Below are positions 48,681 through 64,000 of a DNA stretch of 64,000 bases, one piece after another. The stretch is from Candidatus Eiseniibacteriota bacterium (GTDB lineage: Bacteria > Eisenbacteria > RBG-16-71-46 > JABDJR01): positions 352,001 to 416,000 of the forward strand of contig CAVXKA010000003.1 of the NCBI GenBank assembly GCA_963762255.1, in the 5' to 3' direction. The position numbers and the translations under genes were made by a program. Position 1 is the first letter of the stretch; the number at the start of each line of letters is the position of its first letter. The notes beneath the pieces are model-generated. The model had not been told where the DNA came from. It did no database searches and saw nothing but the letters and a program-made list of their open reading frames with translations.

Positions 48681-50798
48681 TCACCCTGGATACTGCACCG
48701 GCACGAACTTCATGAGCATCAACCAGTCCTGCGTCTCCCCCAGCATCATCTCCTCCGCTTCGGTCAGTATTCGGCGGATCTCAGCAATACTCTCGGCATC
48801 ACCCAGTCGCTCCTGGAGCTTGCGGAGTTCGATGGCCATGTTGCGGCTCCGCTTGCCGAGCCGGGAGTACTCACGGTGACTGCGGAACCCACCGAGCGCC
48901 GCGCCGACCGCAGGCAGGATGATGGCGGCAAGCGTCAGGGCGCTGCTGAGCAGGGTTTCATGGTGCCCCTGGCGAGACACGGCCACATGAGCGGCCGCCG
49001 CCACCATCGCGAGAAGGAACACCGCGGTCCCCCATCGCTCAAGGCGCATCCCCATCCGCTCGCAATCTCTGGCCTTGCCCTCGTGATACTTGATCTGGTC
49101 GCCCACCCAGGCCTTCCCGGCGAAGTCGCGGATGGTCTCGCACGAGCCGCCGATGTGGGTTTGCCGCCGTGAAAGTCGGGTCCAGATCTCGTTGAAGGCG
49201 AGCACCATCCATTGATCGCGCTGCTCGACATCCCCCATGTACGGCGGCACGCGGAGCGTCGACACTTCGCATCCGCAGGCGGCCAGGAAGGCAGCGCACC
49301 TTATGCGCTCGGTCAGGAATCGGGTCTCGATCCAGCTCCGAAGGCTGCGACGCCGATCCGCATGGATCACGACGCCGGCGATGATCGTCAAGAGCAGGAA
49401 CTCGATCCCGAACGCCGCCATCGACAACGAGGGCATGTGGATTCCGACGGCGACCGCGGCGATCGCGAGCGGGAACAGCAGCCAGACGAGGCTGCCCGCC
49501 CTGCGGTACAGTCGCTGGCTCTTCTTGGCGAGGTACGAGGCCTTAGCGTAGTAAGGGAGGAGGTCCTTGCGGACGAGTTCCCTGTTCTCTTCCGGGAGCG
49601 TGTTCCCCTCCGCCGAGCTGAAGATATCTTTGCGGACATTCTCGACGTAGCTTTCCACCTGCTTCCGTCCCGGCGAGTATCCGTTGAAGGTGTCGAGGCG
49701 GGTGATGGACTTGGCGTTCAGGCCGTTGCCGCGCGTCACCCGGATCAGGGAGGGCGATCCGGGTTGAATGTGGATGATGGGCCGCTGCTTGCGCTCCGCG
49801 AAGGCGCGGACTGAGTCGGCGGCCATGCCGAGTGTGCCCGGAGGTTCGACGAGAACGAGCACGTCGCAGTGGTTCACGATGAAGCGACCGGCGCGTCCCG
49901 GCGGTTCTTGCGGGATCTCGCTCTCGACCTTGGCGCCAAGGACCTGATGGAGCCCATCGGCAAGCTTACGTTCCACCTCGGCGTCCGGCCTCGCGAGGAC
50001 GCTGTATACGATCGGCGTGTAGCGAGCTTCAGCGAGCTGCTTTCTCGATGGGGGGTCGAAAAGGCCCAGGATCGCGCCGGGCAGGAACGAGTCTAGCGTT
50101 TCACGCATGCCGTCCGTGGATTCGACGCCTCCTGCGGCCACGACTCCGATCCGAATCCGATAAGGCAAGGCAGGCATGAGATCCGAGTCCGGCGCGTCCG
50201 ATTTGGCGGCGAGTGCGTCCCCACCGAGAACCTCGAAGTTCTCGAAGGTCACCTTCCCCTGCTTCTCGCCGAGAGAAGTAGGCTCGTTGGTGTGGGGATT
50301 TCGATTCCCGGCATGGACCCACGCGATCGGAACGCCTCGCTCGCGCGCGAGTCGGACGATCGCTGCCGTTCCGCCTCGCCCCTGCCCCTTCTTTCCGTCC
50401 CAAACCGCAATGAGGATGTCGGATTGATCGAGGACCGCTGCGCCGGCGGCTTTGTAGGACTCCCCGCGTGTCGGCGCAGTTGGGAGCTCGATGCAGCAGG
50501 TGGCGCGGCCCAAGAGCTGCTCGAACTCCGCCCTTGATTGTGGAGAGGCGAAGTCCTTGGCGTATACGTCAGCGGGCATCGGGAGGATGGCGAGAAGCCG
50601 CGCTTCGGGGTGACGGTCGAGCACATGGGCGGCGACGACGCGATCCGCGCCTTCGGCGAGGGGCGAGACCACGACAACGGAGCTGCCGGGGGACGCGGCC
50701 TCGATACGGCGGAGAGCTTCCTCGATCCCGGCCTTGATCCTGCTCGCGTCCGCAAGAACACGGTGTCCGGTGACGCCGATGCGGACGAGGGACGCCAT
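48681..50798 (-). CDS. SLOG domain, degenerate second SLOG and two SLATT-like 2TM modules (705 aa)
   Basis: RIGVTGHR, SPLAEGADR, SDILIAVWDG...GRGGTA; second RIGV...FIVNHCDVL; two TM pairs followed by W...R...E.IR and helical tails. Confidence 0.75.
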   Translation of the reverse strand: MASLVRIGVTGHRVLADASRIKAGIEEALRRIEAASPGSSVVVVSPLAEGADRVVAAHVLDRHPEARLLAILPMPADVYAKDFASPQSRAEFEQLLGRATCCIELPTAPTRGESYKAAGAAVLDQSDILIAVWDGKKGQGRGGTAAIVRLARERGVPIAWVHAGNRNPHTNEPTSLGEKQGKVTFENFEVLGGDALAAKSDAPDSDLMPALPYRIRIGVVAAGGVESTDGMRETLDSFLPGAILGLFDPPSRKQLAEARYTPIVYSVLARPDAEVERKLADGLHQVLGAKVESEIPQEPPGRAGRFIVNHCDVLVLVEPPGTLGMAADSVRAFAERKQRPIIHIQPGSPSLIRVTRGNGLNAKSITRLDTFNGYSPGRKQVESYVENVRKDIFSSAEGNTLPEENRELVRKDLLPYYAKASYLAKKSQRLYRRAGSLVWLLFPLAIAAVAVGIHMPSLSMAAFGIEFLLLTIIAGVVIHADRRRSLRSWIETRFLTERIRCAAFLAACGCEVSTLRVPPYMGDVEQRDQWMVLAFNEIWTRLSRRQTHIGGSCETIRDFAGKAWVGDQIKYHEGKARDCERMGMRLERWGTAVFLLAMVAAAAHVAVSRQGHHETLLSSALTLAAIILPAVGAALGGFRSHREYSRLGKRSRNMAIELRKLQERLGDAESIAEIRRILTEAEEMMLGETQDWLMLMKFVPVQYPG

Positions 50799-50968
50799 TA
50801 CGCCCACGTGATCCGGTAGCCGGCCCGCTTGACCATGTCTGGGAAGTGCACTACGGAGTTTCGGTCCTTCTTCTGGTCTGTTTCGGACAGCTCTGCGTAG
50901 GGCACCAGCGCCGGATGCAACTTGTTCGCATCATCGCGTTCGTCCACCCAACTGTCCTCCTTTTCCAC
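50798..50968 (-). CDS. Mini RyR-domain ORF (49-56 aa), absent from the ORF track
   Basis: (VEKEDSW)VDERDDANKLHPALVPYAELSETDQKKDRNSVVHFPDMVKRAGYRITWA*; GTG at 50968 or 50947 (AAGGAGG 8 nt upstream); TAATG overlap with the SLOG gene. Confidence 0.65.
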   Translation of the reverse strand: MEKEDSWVDERDDANKLHPALVPYAELSETDQKKDRNSVVHFPDMVKRAGYRITWA

Positions 50969-50973
50969 GTGAT

Positions 50974-53900
50974 CTACGTGCCCTGATCATCGGTACCGAC
51001 GCCATCGGTCGGCGGTTCAGACCCAGCAAGGACTTCGATCGCGAACGGATTCAGTCGGACCGCCTTCGTGCAATGGGGGCAACATCCAAGGAGCCGGGCA
51101 TCCGAGAAAGCGGAATCCGGCAGGTCCAAGCATGGTGATTGACCCGGTCGGAGGGCGTCCATGTTGGATACGATGAGGGCCACCGCGGGGCTGGAGATTG
51201 CGGATTCTTGGTTACACCAGGGACAGTGGATGGAGAGTGAGCCCGTGCGCGCCGAGACCCGGGAAGCGGTGCAGATTCCGGGGCCAAGGGGGACACCCAC
51301 AAGGTCGTAAGTCGACACCTCACCGACTCTAGTCCCGCCAACTGCGCGGTTGAGACGGGCAGAGAAGGCAAGGGCCTCCCACGGCGCAGTCCCCTTCACA
51401 ACGGTCCGGGGCTGTCCGCTCTCCACGTCCCACACTCGCAGAGTCTCGTCGTCACTCCCCGACACCGCGCGGCGACCGTCCGGCGTCACGCTCACGCTCC
51501 TGACCCCCGAGCTGTGGCCTTCCAGCGTGCGCAGGCAGCGTCCGCTCTCCAGATCCCACACCCGCAGCGTCTCGTCGTCACTCCCCGACACCGCGCGCCG
51601 ACCGTCCGGCGTCACGCTCACGCTCCCGACCCCGAGCTGTGGCCTTCCAGCGTGCGCAGGCAGCGTCCGCTCTCCAGATCCCACACCCGCAGCGTCTTGT
51701 CCCAACTCCCCGATACCGCGCGCCGACCGTCCGGCGTCACGCTCACGCTCCCGACCCCGACGCTGTGGCCTTCCAGCGTGCGCAGACACCGCCCGCTCTC
51801 CAGATCCCACACCCGCAGAGTCCGTCGTCACTCCCCGACACCGCGCGGCGACCGTCCGGCGTCACGCTCACGCTCCAGACCGTCGACGCTGTGGCCTTCC
51901 AGCGTGCGCAGGCAGCGCCCGCTCTCCAGATCCCACACCCGCAGCGTCCCGTCGATCACTCCCCGACACCGCGCGGCGACCGTCCGGCGTCACGCTCACG
52001 CTCCCGACCCGCCAGCTGTGGCCTTCCAGCGTGCGCAGGCACGCGCCGCTCTCCAGGTCCCACACCCGCAGCGTCTTGTCCCAACTCCCCGACACCGCGC
52101 GGCGACCGTCCGGCGTCACGCTCACGCTCTCGACCCGCCGAGCTGTGGCCTTCCAGCGTGCGCAGGCACGCGCCCGCTCTCCAGATCCCACACCCGCAGC
52201 GTCTTGTCCCAACTCCCCGACACCGCGCGCCGACCGTCCGGCGTCACGCTCACGCTCCAGACCGTCGACGCTGTGGCCTTCCAGCGTGCGCAGGCACGCG
52301 TCCGCTCTCCAGATCCCACACCCGCAGCGTCTTGTCCCCACTCCCCGACACCGCGCGGCGACCGTCCGGCGTCACGCTCACGCTCCTGACCCCCGAGCTG
52401 TGGCCTTCCAGCGTGCGCAGGCAGCGCCCGCTCTCCAGATCCCACACCCGCAGCGTCCCGTCGTCACTCCCCGACACCGCGCGGCGACCGTCCGGCGTCA
52501 CGCTCACGCTCCCGACCCCCGAGCTGTGGCCTTCCAGCGTGCGCAGGCAGCGCCCGCTCTCCAGATCCCACACCCGCAGCGTCTTGTCCCAACTCCCCGA
52601 TACCGCGCGGCGACCGTCCGGCGTCACGCTCACGCTCCCGACCCGACCGAGCTGTGGCCTTCCAGCGTGCGCAGGCAGCGTCCGCTCTCCAGATCCCACA
52701 CCCGCAGAGTCCCGTCGTCACTCCCCGACACCGCGCGGCGACCGTCCGGCGTCACGCTCACGCTCCAGACCGTCGACGCTGTGGCCTTCCAGCGTGCGCA
52801 GGCAGCGTCCGCTCTCCAGGTCCCACACCCGCAGCGTCCCGTCGATACTCCCCGACACCGCGCGGCGACCGTCCGGCGTCACGCTCACGCTCCTGACCCG
52901 CCGAGCTGTGGCCTTCCAGCGTGCGCAGGCAGCGTCCGCTCTCCAGATCCCACACCCGCAGCGTCCCCTCGTCACTCCCCGACACCACGCGGCGACCGTC
53001 CGGCGTCACGCTCACGCTCCCGACCGTCGAGCTGTGGCCTTCCAGCGTGCGCAGCAACGCGGGCTTCGGGTTGTAGTGGATCTCAGAGGACCAGTGCTGC
53101 AGGAGCATGGGCACACCTAGGGAATAAATGGACTCAGCGACCACCGACCTCACGGGATCGCCAGGTGGACGGTTGAAGGCGTGCTGGGCCACGAACCCCG
53201 GCCACCCGCCGAACTCCAGTAGGGGGTAGCACTCCGATTCGACGAAGGACCCGAAGGCTCGCAATCGGTCGAGTCGCGTCGGGTTCTCGACGATCCGCCG
53301 GCACTCTTCCTCCAGCCGTTCATCGCTCCACGGCTCGACCGAAGGGATGATCTCCGGAAGCGGAGGCGTCTCCTCGCCCCCGTTCCACTTGCGAGCGTAG
53401 TCCACAATCTCTTGCGTCCATCGCGCTGCCCGCGCCTCATGGCGCTCCAGCTCCAGCACCTCCGCTTGCGCCTCGGGCAATGCGGCCAGGACTTGGTGAT
53501 AGTCGCGAATCAGATCGAAGATCTGGCCCGTCCGGATTCGGTCTTCGATGTAGCTCAGATCGGTCAGGAGCGTCTCCAGCTTGTCCCACTGGTGAGTCGC
53601 GATCAGGTGGGCCGGCAAGTGGGCCAGTGTGTAGGCGGATAAGTGCCTTGGCTGCGCCTCGAATTCCCGCCAGCATTGCCTGGCGAGCCGGTTCTGCCCC
53701 TCTTCCATCGACGTGGCGAAGTCGGCGCTGGCCTCGGGATCGGTCAGCCAATCGGCCAGGCTCTGGTGAAACAAGCGCCTCCCCCCGGCGTCGCCGCCCA
53801 AGAACTGCGATAGCGCGGTGAGGCCACGTTTCGTCGGGTGAGGGGCCATACCTGACGCCGCACGCAAGAAGTCGTCCGGCAGTGGCCCCGATGCCGCGAC

Positions 53901-55259
53901 CAGGCAATCCAGCAGCGGTAGCACCTCACTGTCGTAGGCGACACGGTCCTTGAATCGTTTGCGAAACATCGCATGATAGAGGCCGCCTAGTTTTCGGGGT
54001 AAGGCCCCTAGGTCGTCCAGGTCCATCCGCGTCCATGGGTCGCCTTCACCGAGTGCGTCAAGCGTCAGCCTGGCGAACAGGAAGTTGCCGTCCGCCAGTT
54101 CGGCCAACTTCGACGTCGTGCCCGCCTGGCGGGGAACCCTGCCGGACTCATAGAGTCCATCGAGCCGCCGTTTGATGTAGGCAGAAACATCGCGACGGTT
54201 CGGCTCGCCGCCGGCATCGAGATGGCGGCATTGAATGCCGTCCACTTCGAATCTCGCGAGGATGCTCCGGTCGGGCCGGCTTGTGACCACGATGCGCAAG
54301 AAGTCCGGCACGCGGGCCGCCGAATCGGCCAATAGATCCGCCAAGCCGAAGCCAATTTCGGCGACTGATTCATCCAGACCATCCACGATGAAGGTCCAGG
54401 GCTGATCCACCTGGAGCCGGTCGCGGATCTTGCGGAGCGGATCGGCAACCAATGTCCGGAAGAGCGACTCGGGGGGATCCGCCCAGTCGGGAGAGACGGG
54501 CAAGGCCTCCATCACCTCACGATAGGCCGAGAACTGGGCAGCCAGTTGATAGACCAGACCGCGAAGCCAAGAGTCAGGTCGACAAGACTCGATGATCGAG
54601 CGCGAGCAGAAATGGACGCCGCGCACATTGAGCCGCACGCTCATCTGCGCCGCCGCCGCGCTCTTGCCGAACCCTGGTTCAGCGGTAACCAGCAGCAAGC
54701 GAGAACCCGGGGCCTCCACCCACTCCTGAACTTGCTCGAAAAGCCATTCGCGGCCCGTGAAGCTGCCCCCGTGACGGGCGAGTTCTTCTTCGAAGTACCG
54801 TTGCTGCAGGTCGGCCCACCACACCTTGGATGGCCGCGCTGATCCCCAGTCTCGAAAGCCCATGCCTTTGCCGGCCGCAACTTGATCGATGGCGGCCGGA
54901 AGCTCTTTGAACGCCGTGTCGGGATCCGTGGCGGCGTCGATGTAGTTAAGGGACACCACCTGGATGGGAGGAGTCACGTCCGCGATGCGTACGGGGATGA
55001 TCAGCTTCTTGTAGGACTGCGCGAACAGGATCTCGTTTCGACAGAACCCTTCGGGGCGAAGGCTCCAGGGCGACAGTACGGCGATCAGCGCGTCGCTGTC
55101 CGTGATGCCCATCTCGATGCGGAGGTCAAACGGAGCACCGACGGGAATACCGTTCTCGACGTCGAGCCACGGTTCGTGGTTCTGCTGCCGCAGCCACTTA
55201 GCAAGCTGTCCTGCAAACGCCGTTGCGTCGTTGCGGCCGTAGCTGATGAAGATGCGCAT
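50974..55259 (-). CDS. TIR-NACHT/STAND-WD40 NLR-like protein with C-terminal Zn ribbon; frameshifts inside the repeat array
   Basis: IFISYGR...FCRNEI (TIR, catalytic Glu kept), FTGREW, AEPGFGKS, IVDGLDE, VVTSRP; WD40 repeats; CPWC...CPHC. Confidence 0.88.
51415..53055 (-). repeat. 13 near-identical ~126-bp WD40-coding repeats
   Basis: CCTTCCAGCGTGCGCAG recurs 13 times at ~126-bp spacing (about 51518 to 53038); unit LRTLEGHSxxVxSVSVTPDGRRAVSGSxDxTLRVWDLESGRC. Confidence 0.93.
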
Positions 55260-55302
55260 CGCAGAGAGCCTCGCTTCGTGGGTCCTTCAGTCAGGCAATC
55301 TA

Positions 55303-58203
55303 CTACGACCTTGCGGAATGGGTACTGAGAGACGAACTCATGCGCGCCCACGTGATCCGGTAGCCGGCGAGCCCGACCACGTCCGGGAAGTGCAATACGG
55401 AGTCCCTGTCCTTGTCCTGGTCGGCGTCGGGCAACTCGGCGTAGGGGACAAGCGCCGGATGCCGCCTCGCGGGGTCATCGCGCTTCTTCCCGTGGCGCCA
55501 GCCGCTCCGGAGCCGCTGATCCATCCAACCGTCGTGCTCGGCCTCGGCCAGGCGCTCCAAGTGGTACTCGAGATGCTTGCGGATGGCGGCAACCGACTCA
55601 CTCGATGCCTCCTCACTAGATGCCTCGCCCCCCTCCAGACGCAGTCCCGCAAGCGCGAGGGCCGCTGGAATGCGCCGAGCAGCCGCGCGGTTGTCTTCTT
55701 TGTCTACAGAGTCGAGATCCGCGTACGGCTTGTCAAAACGGCGTGCGACCTTCTGCTGCTTGTCTCCGGACAAGATGAGGTAGTTCTTGTGGATCGCCGC
55801 CGCGAGAGCTTCTATGACATCGTCCTGGCCGAAAGGCGCGTGCTCGTCAAGGATCTTGTCGAAAGGCGGCAGGTTGACGTGCATCCCGAGCTGTGGCCGA
55901 GGCGGCAGGGATGAGCGCCGGATGGCCTGCCCTTCGTATGAAGGCTTGAGCGACTGCACAAGCTTCTCGACGGACCGTGCGCCGTGAGTGTACTTGGGCA
56001 CTCGCAGAAGCGCCGCGAGCAGCTCGGGGTCGAAATCGAGCCGAGCATCCTTCGGGACACCCAAGTGCGCTCGAATCAGCAGCGCACGACGAAGGGGCGC
56101 ACAAACGTCGTTCTTTTCGGACATCGGGTCGTCACTACCATCCACGTCAGCAAGACCTTCGCTTCTTGGGTTGGGACCGAGTACGTTGAGATAGGCATCC
56201 AGGCGACTGTGGAAGTCAGGACCCTTCTTGAGTTCGAACTTTCGCCACGCGTCCATGTCGAATCGGGTTGTACCGGGCTTTGGCGGTCCAAACTCCTCGA
56301 ATGTGTGGCTTGTGGCGCCGGCGAAAATGAAGACGCACTTCCCGACGGCGTGACTGATCTGCCCTTCCTGGAAACGCCCGTCCTGCATAGGGGCGAGGAG
56401 AAACTGCAGCCAGTCATACTCACGCGAATCGAATTCGTCCCAGAATACGACCGGAGTGGCTCCACCCAACACAGCGTCGCGGACTTGGTGGAATGCCCCA
56501 ATCAGGTCTCCCACATCCTTGAACTGCGACAGATTGAACTCCCGCCACGCTTCCTTGCCGAAGACGCTGTTGGCGAGTTGGTGCACCCCAAAGGACTTCC
56601 CCGCACCTGGCGGGCCAAAAACACCGATAGAGAGCGGCCTCTTCGCCCCACTGTCCTTCTGGTACTGAATCATCAGCCGTTCGATGCTGCGAAGCGCCTC
56701 GATCTCGAATCGGTCGGCGGTAAGGAGTTTCCCGAACCGTGCATGCGGCAATCGCGCGATGGCGGCTTCACCCCAGAGCACCGTCTGAGTTGCCAATCCC
56801 AGCAAGGACGGCAAATCAGTGGAGCCGAACCGTGATTGAGACATCTCGACGATCTGCCAGACTCTCCTCTGGTCGGGGTCCTTCGGACTCCCGGCATACG
56901 GAGCCCGTTCTTTGTCAGTCCACGGCACCGGTGTCTCCGCGAACTCGTTGCTGCCGGCCACAATGACCTCGGCCAGGCGCTTCGCTGGAAACCCCACCGG
57001 CAATTCCTCGGCAATGGGATGCGGATGCTCTGAAACGAGACCGTGACCCAGTTTCCGAAGATCTCTCATGCCACAGAGTCCGGCCTTGACGGCCGCGCTG
57101 ATCTTGGGCTTCTCCGGCCCGCGCATGATGGCTCGGACCAAGGCCGCGACCATGCAGGACATGTAGCCAAAGGCTTCACCGGGGATCGAACGAGCCCACG
57201 CACCCTCCGCGCCATCGGCATCGAAGACCAAAGTCGCATGTGGCTCCGGTCCGGTGTTGTCAAGCCAGAGAGCGCCATCAGCAGAGAATGTGACAATGAG
57301 GTGCTGGGGCCTTGATGCCATCTCCCGCAAGTTGCGGTCGGATCCCAGCGCCTTATGCAACTCCATGACCGTCCGTTCCCAGGAAAGCCCCGAACCCAAC
57401 TGAGCATGCTCCTGCCTCAGCTCATGCGCGGAGAGGACGACAATCAACTTCTTCGAGTGTTCTTCCTTCAATCGGTGCCACAGATCTCCCTGGCACACCG
57501 GGGCGCTCATCTTCAGGATAATCCACTCGGGCTGCTTCCCCGCTCCCGGGGGAAGCAACCAGCACTCCTCGGCGGCCTGATGACGAAACATGAAGCCTGC
57601 ATCGTCCAGCACAAGCACCCTTGGAGTCGCGGGTGACGGGTCATCAAGCTCCGGCGTGCAATCGGTACAGGGGCCAGTTCCGTCATCGGGGGAGGATTCG
57701 TCATGACCGTAGCCCATCAGGAGGTCCGCACGCCAGACCTGCTTCGGATTCCGGGGACTTGTCGGATCCAGAGGAAACGGCTTCCAGACCGCAAGTGCGT
57801 GATGGCCGCAGGGAGTCTTGTCCGCAGGGGGCATCTTGAGCGGGCACTCCACTTCCCACTGAGCCTCCGGTGCCGGTTTGTGGTTTGCCAGTTCGCCTCT
57901 CGCCTTTACCAGCGCCGTCTCTGCCTCGCTAATCTCCAGTTCCACTCCTCCGTTGCACCGGAGTTCCTCGAGCTTCGCCTCGGCATCCTGGACGGCCTTC
58001 TCTCTTTCCTCCTTCTCATTCCCCGCCACTTTCTTCGCACGTGCAATCGCGGCGTCGATGAGACGAGTCAGCGCCATCGCGCCCCCGGGCTCTCGGACTA
58101 CCCTCACCCCCTGCCGTTCAACGGCAGAAGCAGTGTGGCGCTTGCCTTCATAGATATGGTGATCCACTACCACGTCGCCAGTGACGAGAATCTTGTCTGT
58201 CAT
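55303..58203 (-). CDS. PfkB/HldE-like N-domain, AAA+-type P-loop ATPase and C-terminal RyR domain (966 aa)
   Basis: ILVTGDVVVDHHIY.G...PGGA; GVFGPPGAGKS, VVFWDEFD; LAAAIH..Y...LAEAEHDGW...GWRHG..RDD..R.HPALVPY.EL; RBS GGAGGTG before ATG 58203. Confidence 0.82.
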   Translation of the reverse strand: MTDKILVTGDVVVDHHIYEGKRHTASAVERQGVRVVREPGGAMALTRLIDAAIARAKKVAGNEKEEREKAVQDAEAKLEELRCNGGVELEISEAETALVKARGELANHKPAPEAQWEVECPLKMPPADKTPCGHHALAVWKPFPLDPTSPRNPKQVWRADLLMGYGHDESSPDDGTGPCTDCTPELDDPSPATPRVLVLDDAGFMFRHQAAEECWLLPPGAGKQPEWIILKMSAPVCQGDLWHRLKEEHSKKLIVVLSAHELRQEHAQLGSGLSWERTVMELHKALGSDRNLREMASRPQHLIVTFSADGALWLDNTGPEPHATLVFDADGAEGAWARSIPGEAFGYMSCMVAALVRAIMRGPEKPKISAAVKAGLCGMRDLRKLGHGLVSEHPHPIAEELPVGFPAKRLAEVIVAGSNEFAETPVPWTDKERAPYAGSPKDPDQRRVWQIVEMSQSRFGSTDLPSLLGLATQTVLWGEAAIARLPHARFGKLLTADRFEIEALRSIERLMIQYQKDSGAKRPLSIGVFGPPGAGKSFGVHQLANSVFGKEAWREFNLSQFKDVGDLIGAFHQVRDAVLGGATPVVFWDEFDSREYDWLQFLLAPMQDGRFQEGQISHAVGKCVFIFAGATSHTFEEFGPPKPGTTRFDMDAWRKFELKKGPDFHSRLDAYLNVLGPNPRSEGLADVDGSDDPMSEKNDVCAPLRRALLIRAHLGVPKDARLDFDPELLAALLRVPKYTHGARSVEKLVQSLKPSYEGQAIRRSSLPPRPQLGMHVNLPPFDKILDEHAPFGQDDVIEALAAAIHKNYLILSGDKQQKVARRFDKPYADLDSVDKEDNRAAARRIPAALALAGLRLEGGEASSEEASSESVAAIRKHLEYHLERLAEAEHDGWMDQRLRSGWRHGKKRDDPARRHPALVPYAELPDADQDKDRDSVLHFPDVVGLAGYRITWARMSSSLSTHSARS

Positions 58204-58290
58204 GCGGTCACCTCCGGGGGGAATGATACCAACGCCCACCCAGCCTGTCGTGAGTCGGATTTTGAGGAATGCCGGGGCCGGAGAATCGGC

Positions 58291-59001
58291 TTACTTGGTA
58301 CCGGGCCCGGTGGAGCCCCCACCCACCACCATCCCCACCCTCTCCCCCACATCCATCATCACCATCTCGGGAAAGTCAGCATCCCGTAGGTACGCCATGA
58401 CCGATGCGACGCCAATAGACACCCCCGCCATCGCCACATGCGGGTCGGGCGAATCCGCACAGGTTCCTCCCCAGGACTCGTCATCGCCGTAGAGGGTCGA
58501 CAAGTACTCCTTCAATCCCTCCCGTCCCCGCACCGTGTGACAGCGCACCACGGTCCCCCCGATCCGAACGTCCACCAGCAGACCCAGACTGCGATCCTGC
58601 AATAGCGCCTCGGCAGCCCGCCGCCGCGATTCCATCGTATCCATCCCGAACAGCACGATCGGTCCTGAAGGCCCAACCGCGCCGTCGGGGTACTTCGCGG
58701 GGATCCCCTCGATGGCCACGCCGGGGCACACCTCGTGGATCAACCGCGGCAGCGCCTCCACCTTCAACCGCCGGCGACGCACGTCCGCAGCGCGATAGAA
58801 CTGCACCCCAAGATTTCGCGCGGGATCCAGACGGTCATGGTCGTAGACGCGAATCGACCGGATGCCGGCCATGGCAAGCGCAAGGCACGCGAATGAACCG
58901 GTGCGCCCCGCCCCGATCACACTGACACGCGCCATTTCGAGCCTGCGCTCGAACTGCGACGGTCGCTGGCGGCTCATGTCCCACTCCCCTGTTTTTCGCA
59001 T
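58291..59001 (-). CDS. ThiF/E1-family adenylating enzyme (236 aa)
   Basis: VIGAGRTGS, VYDHD, NLGVQFY, KVEAL, GMDT..SRR, VDVRIG, Cys in GGTC; RBS GGAGG. Confidence 0.85.
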   Translation of the reverse strand: MRKTGEWDMSRQRPSQFERRLEMARVSVIGAGRTGSFACLALAMAGIRSIRVYDHDRLDPARNLGVQFYRAADVRRRRLKVEALPRLIHEVCPGVAIEGIPAKYPDGAVGPSGPIVLFGMDTMESRRRAAEALLQDRSLGLLVDVRIGGTVVRCHTVRGREGLKEYLSTLYGDDESWGGTCADSPDPHVAMAGVSIGVASVMAYLRDADFPEMVMMDVGERVGMVVGGGSTGPGTK

Positions 59002-59711
59002 GGCTCCTCCGGAATCGCCTGGTATCGCACAATGCGGATGTGTCGCCGCACATGCGGCGGGATCTCGCCGAGGCGTCGCCGCACGATCGTGCACCCCACC
59101 CGCTGCGCTGCGCGCAAGACGAGCGGATGACACGGCCATGTGCCGTCGTCTGAGAACGCCACGGCGGGGCGTCCCACCGCCGCAAGCACCGCCGCCAGTG
59201 CGATCCTCTCGTCGGGCATGATGTACTCGAGCTGCCGTCGCTCTCGTTGGGATAACGCGCCGTAGATTCCCCCACCGACGCCCAGTCCGAAGGATTCAAT
59301 GCGCATCGGGTGACCAGATGCCGTCAGGAACTCGGCTCGAGAGGCAATCTCCGTGAGGCGGGCAGGCGGTGCGAGGTACGCGCGCACGCAGACGCGCTGG
59401 ACGCGCACGCCCGGATACTGTCGCTCGCGATCTAGGATCTTGAGGCCGGTCACGAACCGCGCTGGGTTCGAGCCATCCACGTCGGGCCTCTCGCACCACG
59501 TTTCGTCACCCGGCGGTGATACGAGTCGGATGGCGGTTGGCACGAATTCTTCCCAGGCCGGCCGCGCGTTCGCGTGATCCTGCAACGCGAATGCTAAAGC
59601 CGCCGCATTCCCGCCATCGGACTCCGGCTCCACCCGCACCGACGCCGCCACGAACGCCAGAAACTGCCGAAGCGCGAATACGCCGCGGTCGCCGGGAAAG
59701 TCGTTGGCCAT
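58974..59711 (-). CDS. Hypothetical protein (245 aa) inside the Ubl-E1 operon
   Basis: TGATG overlap with the upstream gene and overlap with the E1 start; no JAB HxH motif seen. Confidence 0.65.
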   Translation of the reverse strand: MANDFPGDRGVFALRQFLAFVAASVRVEPESDGGNAAALAFALQDHANARPAWEEFVPTAIRLVSPPGDETWCERPDVDGSNPARFVTGLKILDRERQYPGVRVQRVCVRAYLAPPARLTEIASRAEFLTASGHPMRIESFGLGVGGGIYGALSQRERRQLEYIMPDERIALAAVLAAVGRPAVAFSDDGTWPCHPLVLRAAQRVGCTIVRRRLGEIPPHVRRHIRIVRYQAIPEEPCEKQGSGT

Positions 59712-60313
59712 CAGAGATTCCTCCGAGCCCAGGCAAGGGCCACTAGAACAAGACCGCACAGGTCGAGACGCTCGACGGCAGTTTCGAGGAGAGGGGTGGC
59801 CTCGCCTCGGCATGCGCCGTGACGGCCCGGCTGGATGAACATCGACTCCTGCCCCGCCGCAGTGGACCTGCGAATGAAGACCGGGAAGTGAGGAGCCGGT
59901 GGAAGCGGAAGACAGATCTCGAAAGCGTTTCCAGGGGCTGAGGCGCCTTCGGCCACAAGCGGGCGCACGGTCGCGGTCACCGCGGCCTCGGCCACCACCA
60001 ACCGCTCGAACGGGACTCCATCAAGCAGGACCATCAACCGATTCAGCTCCCGCCTGGCGCGAGGGAGAGGAAACCGGCGCGCGCGCTCGACGCGGCGCAT
60101 CGCGAGCGTCACATCCGCCATGTCGAGATCCCATACCTCGGGCTTCGGACCTATCTCACCGAGCAGAGGCTTGCAGCACGTGAGGAACTCGCGTTGCGCC
60201 TGAAGACCGCGAGCCGCCGCGCCGCAGAACTCCTGCAGGAACGCCGCCAGAACCTCGCGCGCTTGCTCAATCGACTCCCGGGGAGACCCCGGTTGAAGAA
60301 CCACTTCTTCCAT
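59711..60313 (-). CDS. Hypothetical protein with a possible divergent prokaryotic E2-like C-terminal domain (200 aa)
   Basis: Helical N-terminus, beta-rich middle, then GRHGACRGEATPLLETAVERLDLCGLV, resembling the C-x-G plus helix end of Prok-E2 domains; start uncertain. Confidence 0.5.
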   Translation of the reverse strand: MEEVVLQPGSPRESIEQAREVLAAFLQEFCGAAARGLQAQREFLTCCKPLLGEIGPKPEVWDLDMADVTLAMRRVERARRFPLPRARRELNRLMVLLDGVPFERLVVAEAAVTATVRPLVAEGASAPGNAFEICLPLPPAPHFPVFIRRSTAAGQESMFIQPGRHGACRGEATPLLETAVERLDLCGLVLVALAWARRNL

Positions 60314-60407
60314 GGCGTGTCGTGCGCTGGATGGACCGGCGCCGGCGGCAGCGGAAACCGCCACCGGCGCCGGTGCGCATTCCTCCCTTGTTTGTTGTGC
60401 TCGCCGA

Positions 60408-60659
60408 TCAGCCGCCGCGGATCCGCGGGACGTAGGCGAGCGTGACGTCGTGGGTGTGGTCCACCGGCTTGTCGAGCTCGGTGGGCGCACCATCCAGGAA
60501 CAGATCCCAACCCTTGTCGCGCGGCGTCGTACCGGCTGCGCGGATCAGGTCGGCCGCGGTGACCCCTTCGAGCAGATCAACGCTGGCCTCGACACCTTCA
60601 CCGAGCACCCGGACCGTCGCACGATGCGGTCGGGCACCTCGTTCGGGAAACGTCCCCAT
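60408..60659 (-). CDS. Ubiquitin-like beta-grasp protein ending in di-glycine (83 aa)
   Basis: ...TAADLI...LFLDG...LAYVPRIRGG*; strong RBS AGGAGG/AAGGAG. Confidence 0.85.
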   Translation of the reverse strand: MGTFPERGARPHRATVRVLGEGVEASVDLLEGVTAADLIRAAGTTPRDKGWDLFLDGAPTELDKPVDHTHDVTLAYVPRIRGG

Positions 60660-60892: not shown

Positions 60893-61942
60893 TCAGGCGG
60901 GCTGCTTGGGGGGGCGCTTGAGTCCCGCGCGACGCATGCGGTCGCGCACGGTGTCCGGCTTGACCTTGAGCAGGCGCGCGGTTTCGGAGACGTTCCAGTG
61001 GCAGAGTCGCAGGACGGATTCCAGATAGCAGCTCTCGAATCTCTCGGCCGAGAGATCGTGTCCCCCGCCGTCGATTCGCGAGTCGGACGCGGCGCGGGGC
61101 CTTCCGAACGCCGCCGGAGGCAGATCGCCGATCTGGATTACTTCGCGCCGGCCGGCATGGTAGAAGGCCCAGATGACGACCTTCTCCAGCTCCCGGATAT
61201 TGCCCGGCCAATCGTACGCGAGAAGAGATTTCAACGCCGCCCGCGAGAAACGTCGAGCGCGATACGTCTTTCCTGCCTCGCAGGCGAGGCGGGAGAGGAA
61301 CGTCTCTGCGAGGCCGGGGATGTCCTCCCGCCGTTCGTTCAGGCCCGGCATCTCGATCGTGAACGTGCTGATCCGGAAGAAGAGGTCATCGCGGAACTCG
61401 CCGCGATCGACCCGTTCGGTAAGGTCGCGGTTCGTCGCCACAAGCACGCGCACGTCGCTCTTCACTTCGCGGTTCCCGCCGAGGCGCCGAAACCGCCGGT
61501 CCTGGAGAAAGCGCAACAACATCACTTGAGTTAGCGGATGGATGTCGCCGATCTCATCCAGAAAGACGGTGCCGCCGTCGCTTCCCTCGATGAGCCCGAC
61601 GCGACGCTGCCGGCCGGCATCGGTGAAGGCATGGGCCTCGTGCCCGAAAAGCTCGCTGTGGACGAGGGTCTGGGAAAGCCCTGCGACCGGGATGACGCAA
61701 AACGGCGCGTCCTTGCGTCGGCTGAGCCGATGGATCACTTCGGCCAGGAAGGACTTGCCTGTACCGCTGCTGCCGGTGATCAGGACGGTCTCTTCCGTCG
61801 GAGCCATCCATGCCACCGCGCGTAGCACCTTGCGCGCCGCTTCGCTCTTCCATACCGGTGGTAAGAGGCTAAGGTCCGCGCAGGCGAGTGCCTCCACGGT
61901 GCGGGTGACGATCTCGGACTTGGGTTCGAGGTTGGGGGCCAT
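60893..61942 (-). CDS. Sigma54-dependent activator (AAA+ and Fis HTH) lacking an N-terminal sensory domain
   Basis: ITGSSGTGKS, ELFGHEAHAFTDA (GAFTGA variant), GGTVFLDEIGD, FRDDLFFR, WPGNIREL, WNVSETARLL. Confidence 0.92.
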   Translation of the reverse strand: MAPNLEPKSEIVTRTVEALACADLSLLPPVWKSEAARKVLRAVAWMAPTEETVLITGSSGTGKSFLAEVIHRLSRRKDAPFCVIPVAGLSQTLVHSELFGHEAHAFTDAGRQRRVGLIEGSDGGTVFLDEIGDIHPLTQVMLLRFLQDRRFRRLGGNREVKSDVRVLVATNRDLTERVDRGEFRDDLFFRISTFTIEMPGLNERREDIPGLAETFLSRLACEAGKTYRARRFSRAALKSLLAYDWPGNIRELEKVVIWAFYHAGRREVIQIGDLPPAAFGRPRAASDSRIDGGGHDLSAERFESCYLESVLRLCHWNVSETARLLKVKPDTVRDRMRRAGLKRPPKQPA

Positions 61943-62017: not shown

Positions 62018-64000
62018 TCAGAGTCCTCCTGTCGATTGACGGAAGATCGAGACGACCTCAGGGCCGAGTTCCTGAAGCCTATCGAGGATTTCGGAGCGCG
62101 ACATGTCCATTTGCCTCAAGAGCGCCGCGTAGTTCATGACGGCTGCCTGCAGGTTCGGGTGCGGATGACCCGTGGCACGGGTGAACTGGAGAAGGATGCT
62201 CACGTGGCGACGACTCAGCGGTTCGGCCTCCACCAGCCGGTTCGTGTCCTGGAGCAACTGAGCTAGGTTGTTGAGGGCGCTCGCGACATTCGGGTGATCC
62301 CGTCCGAGCCTGTTCTCAAAGATCGCCAGTGCGCGGCGCACGAGGGGTTCGGCCTCTCCCTGACGCCTTGCGCCCTTGAGCAAGCCCACCAGGTTGTTAA
62401 GGCGGATGGCGACCTTGGGGTGGTCGTTCCCGTACCTCTGTTCGTCGATCACCAGCGCGCGGCGCATGAGGTCTTCAGCCTCCGCCGGCCGGTTCGTGAC
62501 TTGGAGCAAGAGAGCCAAGTTGCTGAGAGCGGTCGCGACGTTTGGATGGTCCCGTCCACGGATTCTCTCAAAGATTGCAAGCGAGCGGCGGTAGAGAGGC
62601 TCAGCCTCTCCCAGCCGGCCCGTGGCCTTGAGCAATTGGGCCAGGCTGTTGAGAGCCATCGCGACCTGGTGTTGATCACCGCCACAGCCCTGCTCGCGAA
62701 TCGCCAGCGCGCGGCGCATGAGCGGTTCGGCCTCCGCCAATCGGTTTGTGGCGTAGAGCAAGCCCGCCAAGTTATTGAGGCGGATGGCGACACTTGGGTG
62801 GTCGCTCCCGGAGCTCCGCTCGTCGATCGCCAGCGCGCGGCGCATGAGCGGTTCGGCCTCCGCCAGCCGGTTCGTCGCCTGGAGCAATTGAGCCAGGTTG
62901 CTGATAGCTGTCGCGACCACTGGTTGATCCTCTCCGAGGTCGCTCTCCGAGATTGCCAACGCACGGCGCAAGAGCGGTTCGGCCCGTGTCCACTCAGCTA
63001 GGGTGTACCACCATAGCCCCACTTGACTGAGCAGCCATGCCGCCCATGGATAGGCCCCCTCTGCCCATGCCTCGGCCAAGGCATCCAGCGGCTCCAACTC
63101 CCAGCGCGCCTCCTGCCACCGCGTCGTCGTCTCGAGAACGACGACCCGGTCGCGCACGAAATTGAGTACGCGCTCTCGCCTGGCGGCCAGATGATCAGCC
63201 GACAGGCTCTGCTGCATCAAATCCTGCACCAACCGATGCACGCGCACGACGCGCGCCTCGCCTTCTTCGCCCTCTCCGCGGGTGATGAGCGCCAGCCGCC
63301 AGAGCATGCGGCAGATCCGATCCCACGGCTCCTCGTACCCGGGGGACACGGACACGCCGATCTCGGGGAAGTCACTCGCCACCAACTCCCGCAGCCACGG
63401 CAGCGGCACCGCATCAGGGGCCAGAAGTGCCGCGTACTCCATCGCCCGGCGCCCCGCCGGTTCCAGTCCCTCAATGGAAGGCCCGAGGACGGCGTCCAAC
63501 CGGCGCTCATGATCGTGCTGGCGAAGGGTTACCTCGCGATCCGCGGCCAAATCATCCAGCGCTTCGAGGTCTTCCAGCCCGAGCCGCTCCAGGAAGGCCG
63601 GGTACGTCACGCCGGCATGCACCTCCAGCCACGCCGCCACCAACTCCACCGCCAATACGAACCCGCCCAGCCGTCTCACGATGCGGTGCGCCGCATCACG
63701 TTCGGCGTCGTCCGCGAATGGTCGGTGCTTCTCCAGCAGATCCACCGCGTCCACTTCCGGAAGCTCGCCCAATGTGACCCAGTTGCCATGCGCCCCGGCG
63801 GGAGGCGCGAGGCGCGTGGTCGCCAGCAGGTGAAGGCTTGGCCCCAAACTGGTGAGGGCATCTGTCTGCCTGGGGGACAGCAGGTCGAGGCCGGTCACGT
63901 TGTCCAGCACTAGGAGGATGCGTCCATGGCTATCAAGTCGTTGGCGGAGACAGTCGTAGATCGCCGCGAAGTGCCGATCTGGGCTCTTGCGCTCCTCATC
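62018..64000 (-). CDS. NB-ARC/STAND-TPR protein, 5'-partial (continues beyond the window)
   Basis: Frame open to 64000; ILLVLDNV Walker B, LATTR, LGGFVLAV, VHRLVQ; about seven 42-aa TPRs (EAEPLMRRALAI...HP.VA..LNNLA.LL). Confidence 0.88.
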   Translation of the reverse strand, partial: DEERKSPDRHFAAIYDCLRQRLDSHGRILLVLDNVTGLDLLSPRQTDALTSLGPSLHLLATTRLAPPAGAHGNWVTLGELPEVDAVDLLEKHRPFADDAERDAAHRIVRRLGGFVLAVELVAAWLEVHAGVTYPAFLERLGLEDLEALDDLAADREVTLRQHDHERRLDAVLGPSIEGLEPAGRRAMEYAALLAPDAVPLPWLRELVASDFPEIGVSVSPGYEEPWDRICRMLWRLALITRGEGEEGEARVVRVHRLVQDLMQQSLSADHLAARRERVLNFVRDRVVVLETTTRWQEARWELEPLDALAEAWAEGAYPWAAWLLSQVGLWWYTLAEWTRAEPLLRRALAISESDLGEDQPVVATAISNLAQLLQATNRLAEAEPLMRRALAIDERSSGSDHPSVAIRLNNLAGLLYATNRLAEAEPLMRRALAIREQGCGGDQHQVAMALNSLAQLLKATGRLGEAEPLYRRSLAIFERIRGRDHPNVATALSNLALLLQVTNRPAEAEDLMRRALVIDEQRYGNDHPKVAIRLNNLVGLLKGARRQGEAEPLVRRALAIFENRLGRDHPNVASALNNLAQLLQDTNRLVEAEPLSRRHVSILLQFTRATGHPHPNLQAAVMNYAALLRQMDMSRSEILDRLQELGPEVVSIFRQSTGGL

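Follow-up and report, generated by a model that had tools for sequence, protein, structure and literature searches.

A host-encoded RyR-domain ATPase linked to SLOG, TIR and SLATT proteins as hallmark of a putative Thoeris-type signalling variant

Gene organization of the locus

A stretch of 64,000 nucleotides (nt) from a Candidatus Eiseniibacteriota bacterium (assembly GCA_963762255.1, contig CAVXKA010000003.1, positions 352,001 to 416,000; hereafter the window, numbered from its first letter) carries four genes, termed g1 to g4, which encode a RyR-domain ATPase, a TIR-NACHT-WD40 protein, a short mini-RyR protein and a SLOG-SLATT membrane protein. A preliminary description of these genes, made from the sequence, had proposed a Thoeris-like defence system triggered by a NOD-like receptor (NLR), an interpretation that is supported in part by the analysis reported here. 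The association of the genes is real and conserved, and the host-encoded RyR-ATPase looks like the hallmark of a new variant of TIR- or Thoeris-type signalling immunity.

All four genes lie co-oriented on the minus strand, as do the domains located within them. Gene g1 (55303..58203) encodes 966 amino acids (aa) from an ATG start, or 978 aa if translation begins at an upstream GTG at position 58239. It is followed after 43 nt by g2, which runs from 55259 down to 50974 and thus spans approximately 4.3 kb, with a first stop at 52758 and a final frame that ends at 50974. After a further 5 nt comes g3 (50798..50968, 56 aa), which overlaps by 1 nt, within the string TAATG, with g4 (48681..50798; 705 aa from an ATG, 708 aa from a GTG at 50807). 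The coordinates of the open reading frames (ORFs) bear out the co-orientation and spacing described previously.

The domain composition given in the preliminary description was likewise recovered, by Pfam for most domains and by fold for SLOG. Pfam detected RyR (E 9.8e-16) and a weak AAA/bpMoxR match in g1; TIR_2 (1e-20), the NACHT family NPHP3_N (9e-17), HTH_TANC1 and WD40 in g2; RyR in g3 (4.8e-8, covering only positions 38-90 of the 91 in the profile); and SLATT_1 in g4 (4e-10). A full match in PADLOC had not been expected, and indeed this database holds no model for g1, g3 or g4 and matched g2 through its TIR domain alone; ThsB1 was the profile concerned, and no ThsA match was obtained in the four genes. 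Nothing in NCBIfam scored above its cut-offs for the four proteins, and Pfam placed a SIR2 domain in none of them.

The RyR-ATPase g1

The g1 protein could be aligned with nine homologs along its full length and belongs to a family of 1,822 cluster representatives (clusters of 50% identity, E<=1e-30), whose members are named in the source records only as 'hypothetical', 'RyR domain-containing' or 'ATP-binding'. Its N-terminal domain (aa 1-495; 56719..58203) has no match in Pfam. An AlphaFold2 model of this domain, with a mean predicted local distance difference test (pLDDT) score of 85.9 and a predicted template modelling (pTM) score of 0.88, gave 281 Foldseek matches in the PDB at E<=1e-3, the best of which were the fructose-1-phosphate kinase 2abq, LacC, HldA and ribokinases with a probability of 1.00. 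Judged from this model, the domain has the ribokinase/PfkB-like fold. Its N-terminal GD and GG motifs are invariant. The canonical catalytic motif of the PfkB/ribokinase family is a GAGD-type anion-hole motif with an Asp base; this classic motif was not seen in the g1 domain, where a conserved C-terminal motif of the form FDPxxxEGEW stands in its place. The domain may bind or phosphorylate the ribose of a signal molecule or of ADP-ribose (ADPR), which we put forward as pure speculation. A long predicted coiled coil is inserted at aa 42-106 (57886-58080) and is absent from the nine aligned homologs.

The central part of g1 (aa 496-790; 55834..56718) is an AAA+ module with a Walker A motif GPPGAGKS and a Walker B motif FWDEFD, both invariant in two homolog alignments. 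Sequence matches of this module in the PDB are weak (ClpC, RFC and Rpt3, E 0.009-0.05), and the Pfam families bpMoxR (E 0.0017-0.006) and AAA both remain under their cut-offs.

Two RyR repeats of the Repeat12 (R12) type, a (aa ~795-870) and b (aa ~880-955), form the C-terminal part of g1 (55339..55821). They score 58-61 bits against the Pfam family PF02026, well above its gathering cut-off of 27.4, and match Repeat12 of the ryanodine receptors RyR1-3 and a Bacteroides RyR-like protein in the PDB with E-values down to 1e-28. Two groups reported in 2026, in the accessible parts of their papers, that phage RyR-domain proteins bind or cleave the cyclic ADPR signals of Thoeris and that their likeness to the animal ryanodine receptor is puzzling (PMC13232231; 10.64898/2026.06.04.730250). 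One of these, RyDEP, is a phage R12/RyR-domain glycosidase, described there with related sponges, for 2'cADPR and 3'cADPR (cADPR, cyclic ADPR) with key residues H75, W78, H100 and D117 (PMC13232231); the other, RyR Tad, is the product gp68 of phage CB1, which binds 3'cADPR, 2'cADPR and cADPR through H129/W132, K147/H154 and K170/D171 (10.64898/2026.06.04.730250).

In repeat b of g1, the residues H890, W893, H915, K931 and D932 are conserved in 16, 14, 12, 14 and 16 of 16 homologs, respectively, and their spacing (+3, +25, +41/42) is identical to that described for the ligand residues of RyDEP and RyR Tad. A direct BLAST alignment of repeat b with gp68 yielded 36% identity (E 2e-11); it places the basic-Asp pair on R933-D934 rather than on K931-D932, and the pair is present either way. 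On the basis of these residues, repeat b of g1 is a strong candidate for the receptor of a TIR-made signal. The preliminary description had assigned this role to the SLOG domain; SLOG stands as a candidate, now joined by the RyR repeat with the ligand residues of the cADPR-binding phage proteins. Because H890 and D932 match the catalytic dyad of RyDEP, g1 could, by analogy, just as well act as a signal sink, through buffering or cleavage.

The SLOG-SLATT protein g4

The domains SLOG and SLATT were reportedly defined by Burroughs et al. in 2015 (NAR). In g4, modelled with a pLDDT of 80.5, no SLOG family exceeds its Pfam cut-off, the closest being YAcAr with E 0.01. The identity of the N-terminal domain (SLOG1, aa 1-190; 50229..50798; motifs GVTGHR, LAEGADR, WDG and GGT) was confirmed by its fold match to YpsA (2nx2; Foldseek probability 1.00, TM-score normalized to the target 0.72); DprA was also matched with probability 1.00, and N-terminal regions of TRPM channels appear among the hits. 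The only vWA-like match, VWA_CoxE, reaches 20.8 bits against a cut-off of 26.4 and falls within the SLOG-folding region. SLOG1 is 41-58% identical to the aligned SLOG1 genes or modules that adjoin g1 homologs elsewhere, most of which are standalone.

A second Rossmann-like domain (SLOG2, aa ~210-360; 49719..50171), recognized from the secondary structure of the model, lacks the motifs of SLOG1 and shares 25-28% identity with the single SLOG domain of the common SLOG-SLATT proteins of 550 aa. It is followed by the membrane part (48684..49559), which comprises two SLATT-like units of two transmembrane (TM) helices each, placed by a hydropathy scan at aa 435-453, 460-478, 590-608 and 616-634, and which matches SLATT_1 and weakly SLATT_3 in Pfam and NCBIfam. 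A PDB sequence search with g4 alone returned nothing useful. The prediction of a complex between the AAA+RyR part of g1 and SLOG1 scored 0.01 against a mark of 0.32, which we count as evidence neither for nor against an interaction.

Conservation of the RyR-ATPase and SLOG1 pair

Related loci were collected by two scans. An alignment of g4 relatives found 179 relatives in metagenomes, and an alignment of g1 found at least 328 in a set with one genome per species; the best 80 loci of each were kept. The loci were selected by similarity to the query, related loci are not independent, and ORFs were called by a simple greedy rule. Tallies of TIR, SLOG1, SLATT and TrkA-RyR proteins rest on hidden Markov models (HMMs) built from few sequences of the same loci, of which the TIR model was checked by Pfam.

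Among the metagenome loci, 75 of 80 contain a SLOG1 module of 50-60% identity, mostly as a protein of approximately 190 aa. Where at least 1.8 kb of upstream sequence was available, a g1 homolog lies directly upstream of SLOG1 on the same strand in 28 of 37 loci, and elsewhere in the locus in three more. Both scans together (160 loci) gave 52 g1-to-SLOG1 pairs; counted from stop to stop, 11 of these are fused in one open frame, and the remaining gaps are mostly shorter than 50 nt. The conserved core is the RyR-ATPase and SLOG1, adjacent or fused. Much more confidence can be placed in a functional link of g1 with SLOG1 than in the integrated mechanism discussed below. Long SLOG1 fusion ORFs at the loci L022, L045, L061, L074 and L079 proved to be artefacts of tblastn matches crossing a stop; SLOG1 is standalone there, and in L061, L074 and L079 it is followed by a TIR gene.

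The 80 genome loci are spread over Acidobacteriota, Planctomycetota, Chloroflexota, Bacteroidota, Chlorobi-type bacteria, Actinomycetota (Humibacillus xanthopallidus DSM 21776) and one euryarchaeal metagenome-assembled genome (MAG); in the cultured Humibacillus strain, the locus (L142) combines TIR, g1 and SLOG1. According to the custom HMMs, a TIR gene lies within 5 kb of g1 in 38 of the 80, SLOG1 in 19, SLATT in 17 and a protein of approximately 590 aa with TM helices, TrkA_N and RyR in 11; at least one of these four was found in 59 loci, with the reservation that eight of the 80 have less than 1.5 kb of downstream sequence. The TIR matches peak just downstream of g1, with 29 in the 0-2 kb bin (147 kb) versus 1-10 in each other 2-kb bin (92-149 kb each). 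Pfam recognized TIR_2 in all 53 TIR ORFs checked (of 59; six short or edge ORFs were left out). Their fusion partners comprise NB-ARC, WD40, TPR, LRR, Kelch, FGE-sulfatase, lectin-like and solute-binding domains, and related loci often hold two to five TIR genes. A lack of co-occurrence in other genomes, which the preliminary description had named as grounds for its rejection, is not observed: in many phyla, homologs of the RyR-ATPase are found together with the SLOG module, with TIR genes and with SLATT or other membrane proteins. What is conserved as a core is the RyR-ATPase with SLOG1, not the set of four genes. Among 40 relatives of the source genome, a full-length g1 occurs in one, a partial g1 in four and g4-like genes in five, and the distribution is patchy.

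The protein of approximately 590 aa consists of two N-terminal TM helices, an RCK-type TrkA_N domain and a C-terminal RyR domain, and often comes right after g1 and SLOG1. It was found at L044 (10833-12617) and also at L066, L068, L073, L118, L122, L133, L151, L159 and L163, and is a candidate for a RyR-gated membrane effector. A further membrane architecture was observed at L091 (4726-7197), in the Blastocatellia MAG with the closest genomic relative of g1, where SLOG1 is fused to a 7-TM protein without Pfam match instead of to SLATT.

The TIR-NACHT-WD40 protein g2 and its interrupted frame

The TIR domain of g2 (54885..55259) contains a glutamate, E76, which all 16 TIR domains aligned from related loci share and which we take to be the catalytic Glu of the TIR family; the claim of the preliminary description that the TIR domain retains this residue is upheld. 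A PDB sequence search with the g2 TIR domain alone gave nothing useful. The profile of the TIR alignment matched NADase TIRs such as SARM1, Cat1, AbTir and TIR-APAZ. The adjoining NACHT module (53160..54842) comprises NPHP3_N, HTH_TANC1 and APAF1_C-like helices, with Walker A GFGKS and Walker B DGLDE read from the translation. Proteins related to g2 that carry WD40 or TPR sensors occur widely, and intact relatives measure 1327-1455 aa, in line with the 4.3-kb span of g2.

Two relatives share the NACHT subtype of g2 and have RyR repeats where g2 has its WD40 sensor, namely P0261 and the protein encoded at L125 (13545-15983), which adjoins a g1 homolog and is homologous to the TIR-NACHT part of g2 with E 8e-48. 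These TIR-NACHT-RyR proteins hint at NLRs that are triggered by the signal itself, in a feed-forward manner. A direct TIR-RyR fusion was observed in the source genome at a site far from the window (L172:607-1713; contig C1, ~838.3-839.4 kb), where a protein of 368 aa combines TIR_2 (Pfam E 2.2e-6) and RyR (4.5e-8).

The WD40 array of g2 (51416..53054) consists of 13 units of approximately 126 nt, or 12.9 copies at 92% identity, and reading through it requires about 11 frame switches within 1.6 kb. The unit lengths are 126, 127, 127, 128, 126, 127, 128, 127, 127, 126, 126, 125 and 126 nt, such that eight of the 13 differ from 126 nt. The insertions and deletions affect two spots of the unit, one in the variable codons that follow EGHS and one in a GC-rich run, and each in-frame stretch reads as a perfect WD40 consensus without a stop; because of both features, the frame switches are more likely to stem from consensus errors in a tandem array of nearly identical units than from decay. 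The other frames of the operon are open over 2.9 kb (g1), 2.1 kb (g4) and 2.2 kb (TIR-NACHT). Among the public sequencing runs listed, a single soil-metagenome run held 5% of the sampled words, and none was an RNA run. The array is followed by a C-terminal tail (50974..51415) with CxxC...CxxC motifs in its translation and weak matches at L013 and L104.

The mini-RyR gene g3 and the placement of g2

Over 117 nt, the g3 sequence is 83% identical at the nt level to the 3' end of g1, and the two finish with the same residues, ..AGYRITWA. It scores 33.6 bits as a half RyR repeat without the H-x-x-W helix; of the binding pocket, the second His and the Lys-Asp are all that remain. Judged from these similarities, g3 arose by partial duplication of the g1 3' end. 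Its stop codon overlaps the start of g4 in a manner that resembles the usual g1/SLOG1 junction of other loci, and therefore g3 is probably a scar left when g2 came to lie between g1 and g4, rather than a designed part; the mini-RyR is thus less likely to be a component of the system, as which the preliminary description had listed it. That g3 is the split-off second RyR repeat of g1 was ruled out, as g1 has both repeats and g3 copies only the end of repeat b. At L068 (2803-3123), a separate RyR ORF of 106 aa lies between a RyR-less g1 homolog and SLOG1, in a position like that of g3, and represents a split gene or a frameshift.

The ratio of nonsynonymous to synonymous substitution rates (dN/dS) between g3 and g1 is 0.32-0.50 over 39-55 codons, which leaves the constraint of g3 undecided. 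It could be argued from this ratio, which does not demonstrate constraint on g3 itself, from the half repeat of g3 and from the frame switches of g2 that the locus is a decayed remnant that has ceased to function as a unit, with g2 being a true pseudogene and g3 a fragment. We consider this improbable, as g1, g4 and the TIR-NACHT part of g2 are open with all motifs kept, and as indels at two spots in a stop-free, perfect WD40 consensus fit errors in the consensus of a tandem repeat better than random decay.

A stronger competitor, although in our judgement still rather unlikely, is the presence of two independent systems side by side. A self-contained, NAD+-depleting TIR-NACHT-WD40 NLR in the style of Avs or bNACHT would have been inserted into a RyR-ATPase/SLOG-SLATT system with another input, and the insertion would have given rise to the mini-RyR by duplicating the g1 3' end. 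The duplication scar with its ancestral stop/start overlap to g4, the direct contact of g1 and SLOG1 in most loci and the wide occurrence of g2 relatives with WD40 or TPR sensors are in favour of this explanation, as is the fact that the 80 matches listed for g2 include none from the contigs of the closest g1 and g4 relatives. The accessible text of a recent Thoeris survey (10.64898/2025.12.03.692087) also classes TIRs on STAND proteins as effectors. The explanation by two systems is opposed by the strong concentration of TIR genes, including TIR-STANDs, beside g1 homologs, by the TIR-NACHT-RyR fusions, which tie the NACHT clade of g2 to the RyR module, and by g2 being the sole TIR gene found in the cluster. 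The membership of an NLR-type TIR gene in the operon, as claimed in the preliminary description, accordingly holds for its position between g1 and g4, although this arrangement may be a lineage-specific insertion.

Relation to known defence systems

The same survey defines Thoeris types I-XI; in its accessible text, the SLOG domain of type I binds 3'cADPR, type III combines several TIRs with a SLOG effector, type VII couples a TIR to the SLATT effector ThsH through canonical cADPR, and type X uses an ion-channel effector (10.64898/2025.12.03.692087). This text mentions no ATPase, and ryanodine receptors appear in it only as animal targets of cADPR (10.64898/2025.12.03.692087). Measured against the definition of the survey as far as accessible, the g2 TIR with its Glu agrees with the TIR criterion, whereas its fusion to NACHT-WD40 conflicts with the rule that the TIR is not borne on a STAND or Avs protein. 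The putative effector gene g4, with SLOG and SLATT, lies 176 nt downstream of g2, and by analogy with Thoeris its product would be activated by the TIR signal.

One of the closest likenesses is to type VII: in both, a TIR gene with Glu stands beside a SLATT membrane protein, and a TIR signal would be expected to open a membrane effector. The locus in the window differs from type VII, as described in the accessible text, in that its TIR is part of a NACHT-WD40 NLR, a class discarded in the survey, and in that a ribokinase-like/AAA+/RyR protein belongs to its conserved core, for which that text names no ATPase and no RyR counterpart. In addition, its SLATT protein bears two N-terminal SLOG domains; g4, which contains SLATT_1 and has no NCBIfam equivalog match, is at most a candidate member of the ThsH family. 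With types I and III it shares a SLOG domain that is presumed to receive a TIR product, as well as the two to five TIR paralogs of related loci. It departs from type I by having no SIR2 domain and no ThsA match, and from type III in that g2 scores only 36.7 bits, in its TIR region, against a cut-off of 220 for ThcB4 (NF058526); unlike in both types, SLOG1 of g4 is closest in fold to YpsA and DprA.

RyDEP and RyR Tad belong to the same R12-type fold family (PF02026) as the g1 repeats, and repeat b has their His/Trp/His/basic-Asp ligand residues. The phage proteins, however, are small anti-defence proteins that sequester or hydrolyse the signal, whereas the RyR domain of g1 is host-encoded, fused to an AAA+ module and embedded in a TIR system, where it may sense, buffer or cleave. 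Kaur et al. (2020) described NTPase 'thresholding' conflict systems of multicellular bacteria with TIR, STAND and SLATT parts (PMC7159879, accessible text). The MoxR-vWA ternary and iSTAND systems of that text likewise combine a thresholding AAA+ NTPase with TIR or STAND proteins, beta-propellers and SLATT effectors, and g1 has a weak bpMoxR match; in contrast, the locus studied here has no vWA partner, bpMoxR stays under its cut-off, and RyR occurs zero times in the text of PMC7159879. Finally, g2 resembles bNACHT and Avs proteins in its N-terminal effector-type domain, its NACHT with Walker A and B motifs and its C-terminal repeat sensor. Those proteins act alone, whereas g2 lies among genes for signal receivers and is interrupted in this assembly. 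No description of host RyR-domain proteins in TIR systems was found in the literature searched, the supplements of the Thoeris survey and Burroughs et al. (2015) being outside its scope, and RyR is mentioned neither in Iyer et al. (2022) nor in a 2026 STAND survey.

A proposed signalling mechanism

Given the domain content, the conserved catalytic and ligand residues and the genetic linkage of g1 with SLOG1, TIR genes and membrane proteins, all of which were observed directly, we hypothesize that the locus is the local version of a widespread, modular, Thoeris-like abortive-infection signalling system with an ATPase-coupled RyR/SLOG receiver, and regard the chances of this interpretation as about even. 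The WD40 array of g2 would recognize a phage product and the NACHT module would oligomerize, as in STAND proteins. The clustered TIR domains would then convert NAD+ into a signal of the cyclic-ADPR type, a step suggested by the catalytic Glu alone. The signal might be read by the pocket of RyR repeat b in g1, by SLOG1 of g4 or by both, in agreement with the conserved ligand residues and the homology to a phage cADPR sponge. Because g1 and SLOG1 are adjacent and fused in other genomes, they may work as one unit, in which the AAA+ ATPase would set a threshold or license the effector. By comparison with the SLATT effectors of CBASS (cyclic oligonucleotide-based antiphage signalling systems) and type VII Thoeris, the 4-TM SLATT part of g4 would finally breach or depolarize the membrane and thereby abort the infection.

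Several observations weigh against this hypothesis. The weakest link of the model is g2 as the source of the signal, and TIRs borne on STAND proteins are usually taken to be NAD+-depleting effectors, for which the Thoeris survey, in its accessible text, discarded them (10.64898/2025.12.03.692087). A TIR is not obligatory for the core, because several loci with g1, SLOG1 and the TrkA/RyR protein (such as L122, L133 and L151) have no TIR in the available sequence. As the contigs apparently shared by the closest g1 and g4 relatives, which were paired indirectly by their lengths (45,865 and 10,366), show no g2 homolog among those 80 listed matches, g2 may be a recent insertion, and its sensor may be non-functional given the approximately 11 frame switches of the assembled sequence. 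The ribokinase-like domain of g1, moreover, has no role in the proposed chain.

The core loci without TIR could also point to a function outside immunity, in which g1 and SLOG1 form a physiological sensor of NAD-derived metabolites that controls SLATT or TM-TrkA_N-RyR proteins in a stress response or in dormancy, with TIRs as metabolic inputs. Ribokinase-like domains and TrkA_N domains of the NAD-binding type are typical of metabolism and of the control of ion transport, and PADLOC has no model for g1 or g4. Nevertheless, we consider such a function very improbable: hallmarks of conflict systems are seen in the variable sensor-like C-termini of the TIR proteins, in the presence of several TIR paralogs at one locus, in the STANDs of NLR type and in the SLATT effectors, the distribution among relatives is patchy, and phages carry RyR-domain sponges against TIR signals.

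The animal ryanodine receptor has long been said to be modulated by cADPR. The Thoeris-like interpretation can be extended to a joint reading, offered tentatively and with more doubt than confidence, in which cyclic-ADPR signals made by TIRs have the RyR Repeat12-type domain as their ancestral host receptor in prokaryotic immunity. The ribokinase-like/AAA+/RyR family (at least 1,822 clusters of 50% identity, from Acidobacteriota to Actinomycetota and including one archaeal MAG) would then define a multi-tier Thoeris-like pathway of wide occurrence, in which an ATP-driven RyR/SLOG receiver gates membrane effectors. The TM-TrkA_N-RyR proteins would be bacterial counterparts of the cADPR-modulated ryanodine receptor channels, and RyDEP and RyR Tad would be captured copies of the host sensor.

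In the locus and its relatives, the RyR domain is encoded by the host, joined to an ATPase and linked genetically with TIR, SLOG, SLATT and channel-like proteins. Should the RyR repeat indeed be the receiver, this would explain the origin of the phage sponges, add an ATP-dependent regulatory tier to TIR signalling and offer a tractable bacterial model for the interaction of cADPR with RyR domains. If the proposed role of g2 is true, TIR domains borne on NLRs can be signal generators and not mere depleters of NAD+.

Neighbouring genes

Upstream of g1, a co-oriented gene on the minus strand (62018..64000, continuing past the end of the window; also L174:18-2429) encodes a protein of 803 aa that Pfam identifies as an NB-ARC-TPR STAND protein, in which no TIR was found. 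Its relatives adjoin g1 homologs at L157 (55% identity) and L091 (48%), and it may serve the same system as a second sensor.

Between this gene and g1 (58291-60493), a co-oriented ThiF/E1-like gene with weak matches to the E1-E2 models of PADLOC (E 1.7e-8) is accompanied by two hypothetical genes. The three are not counted as parts of the system, because no counterparts were found in the other loci searched; they could form a separate ubiquitin-like conjugation defence module. At 60893-61942, a sigma-54-type AAA+ activator of 349 aa without an N-terminal sensor was observed, with its best PADLOC match in the AAA-HTH part of the CARF-bearing RtcR_PspF2 (E 7.9e-85); its homologs occur in only seven of the searched loci, by estimate no more than expected by chance. 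Just past the end of the window, on the same strand, follow a protein of 290 aa with a weak match to nucleoside 2-deoxyribosyltransferases (L174:2975-3847) and a DUF499 protein (L174:4188-6044), and the region resembles a larger conflict-gene island.

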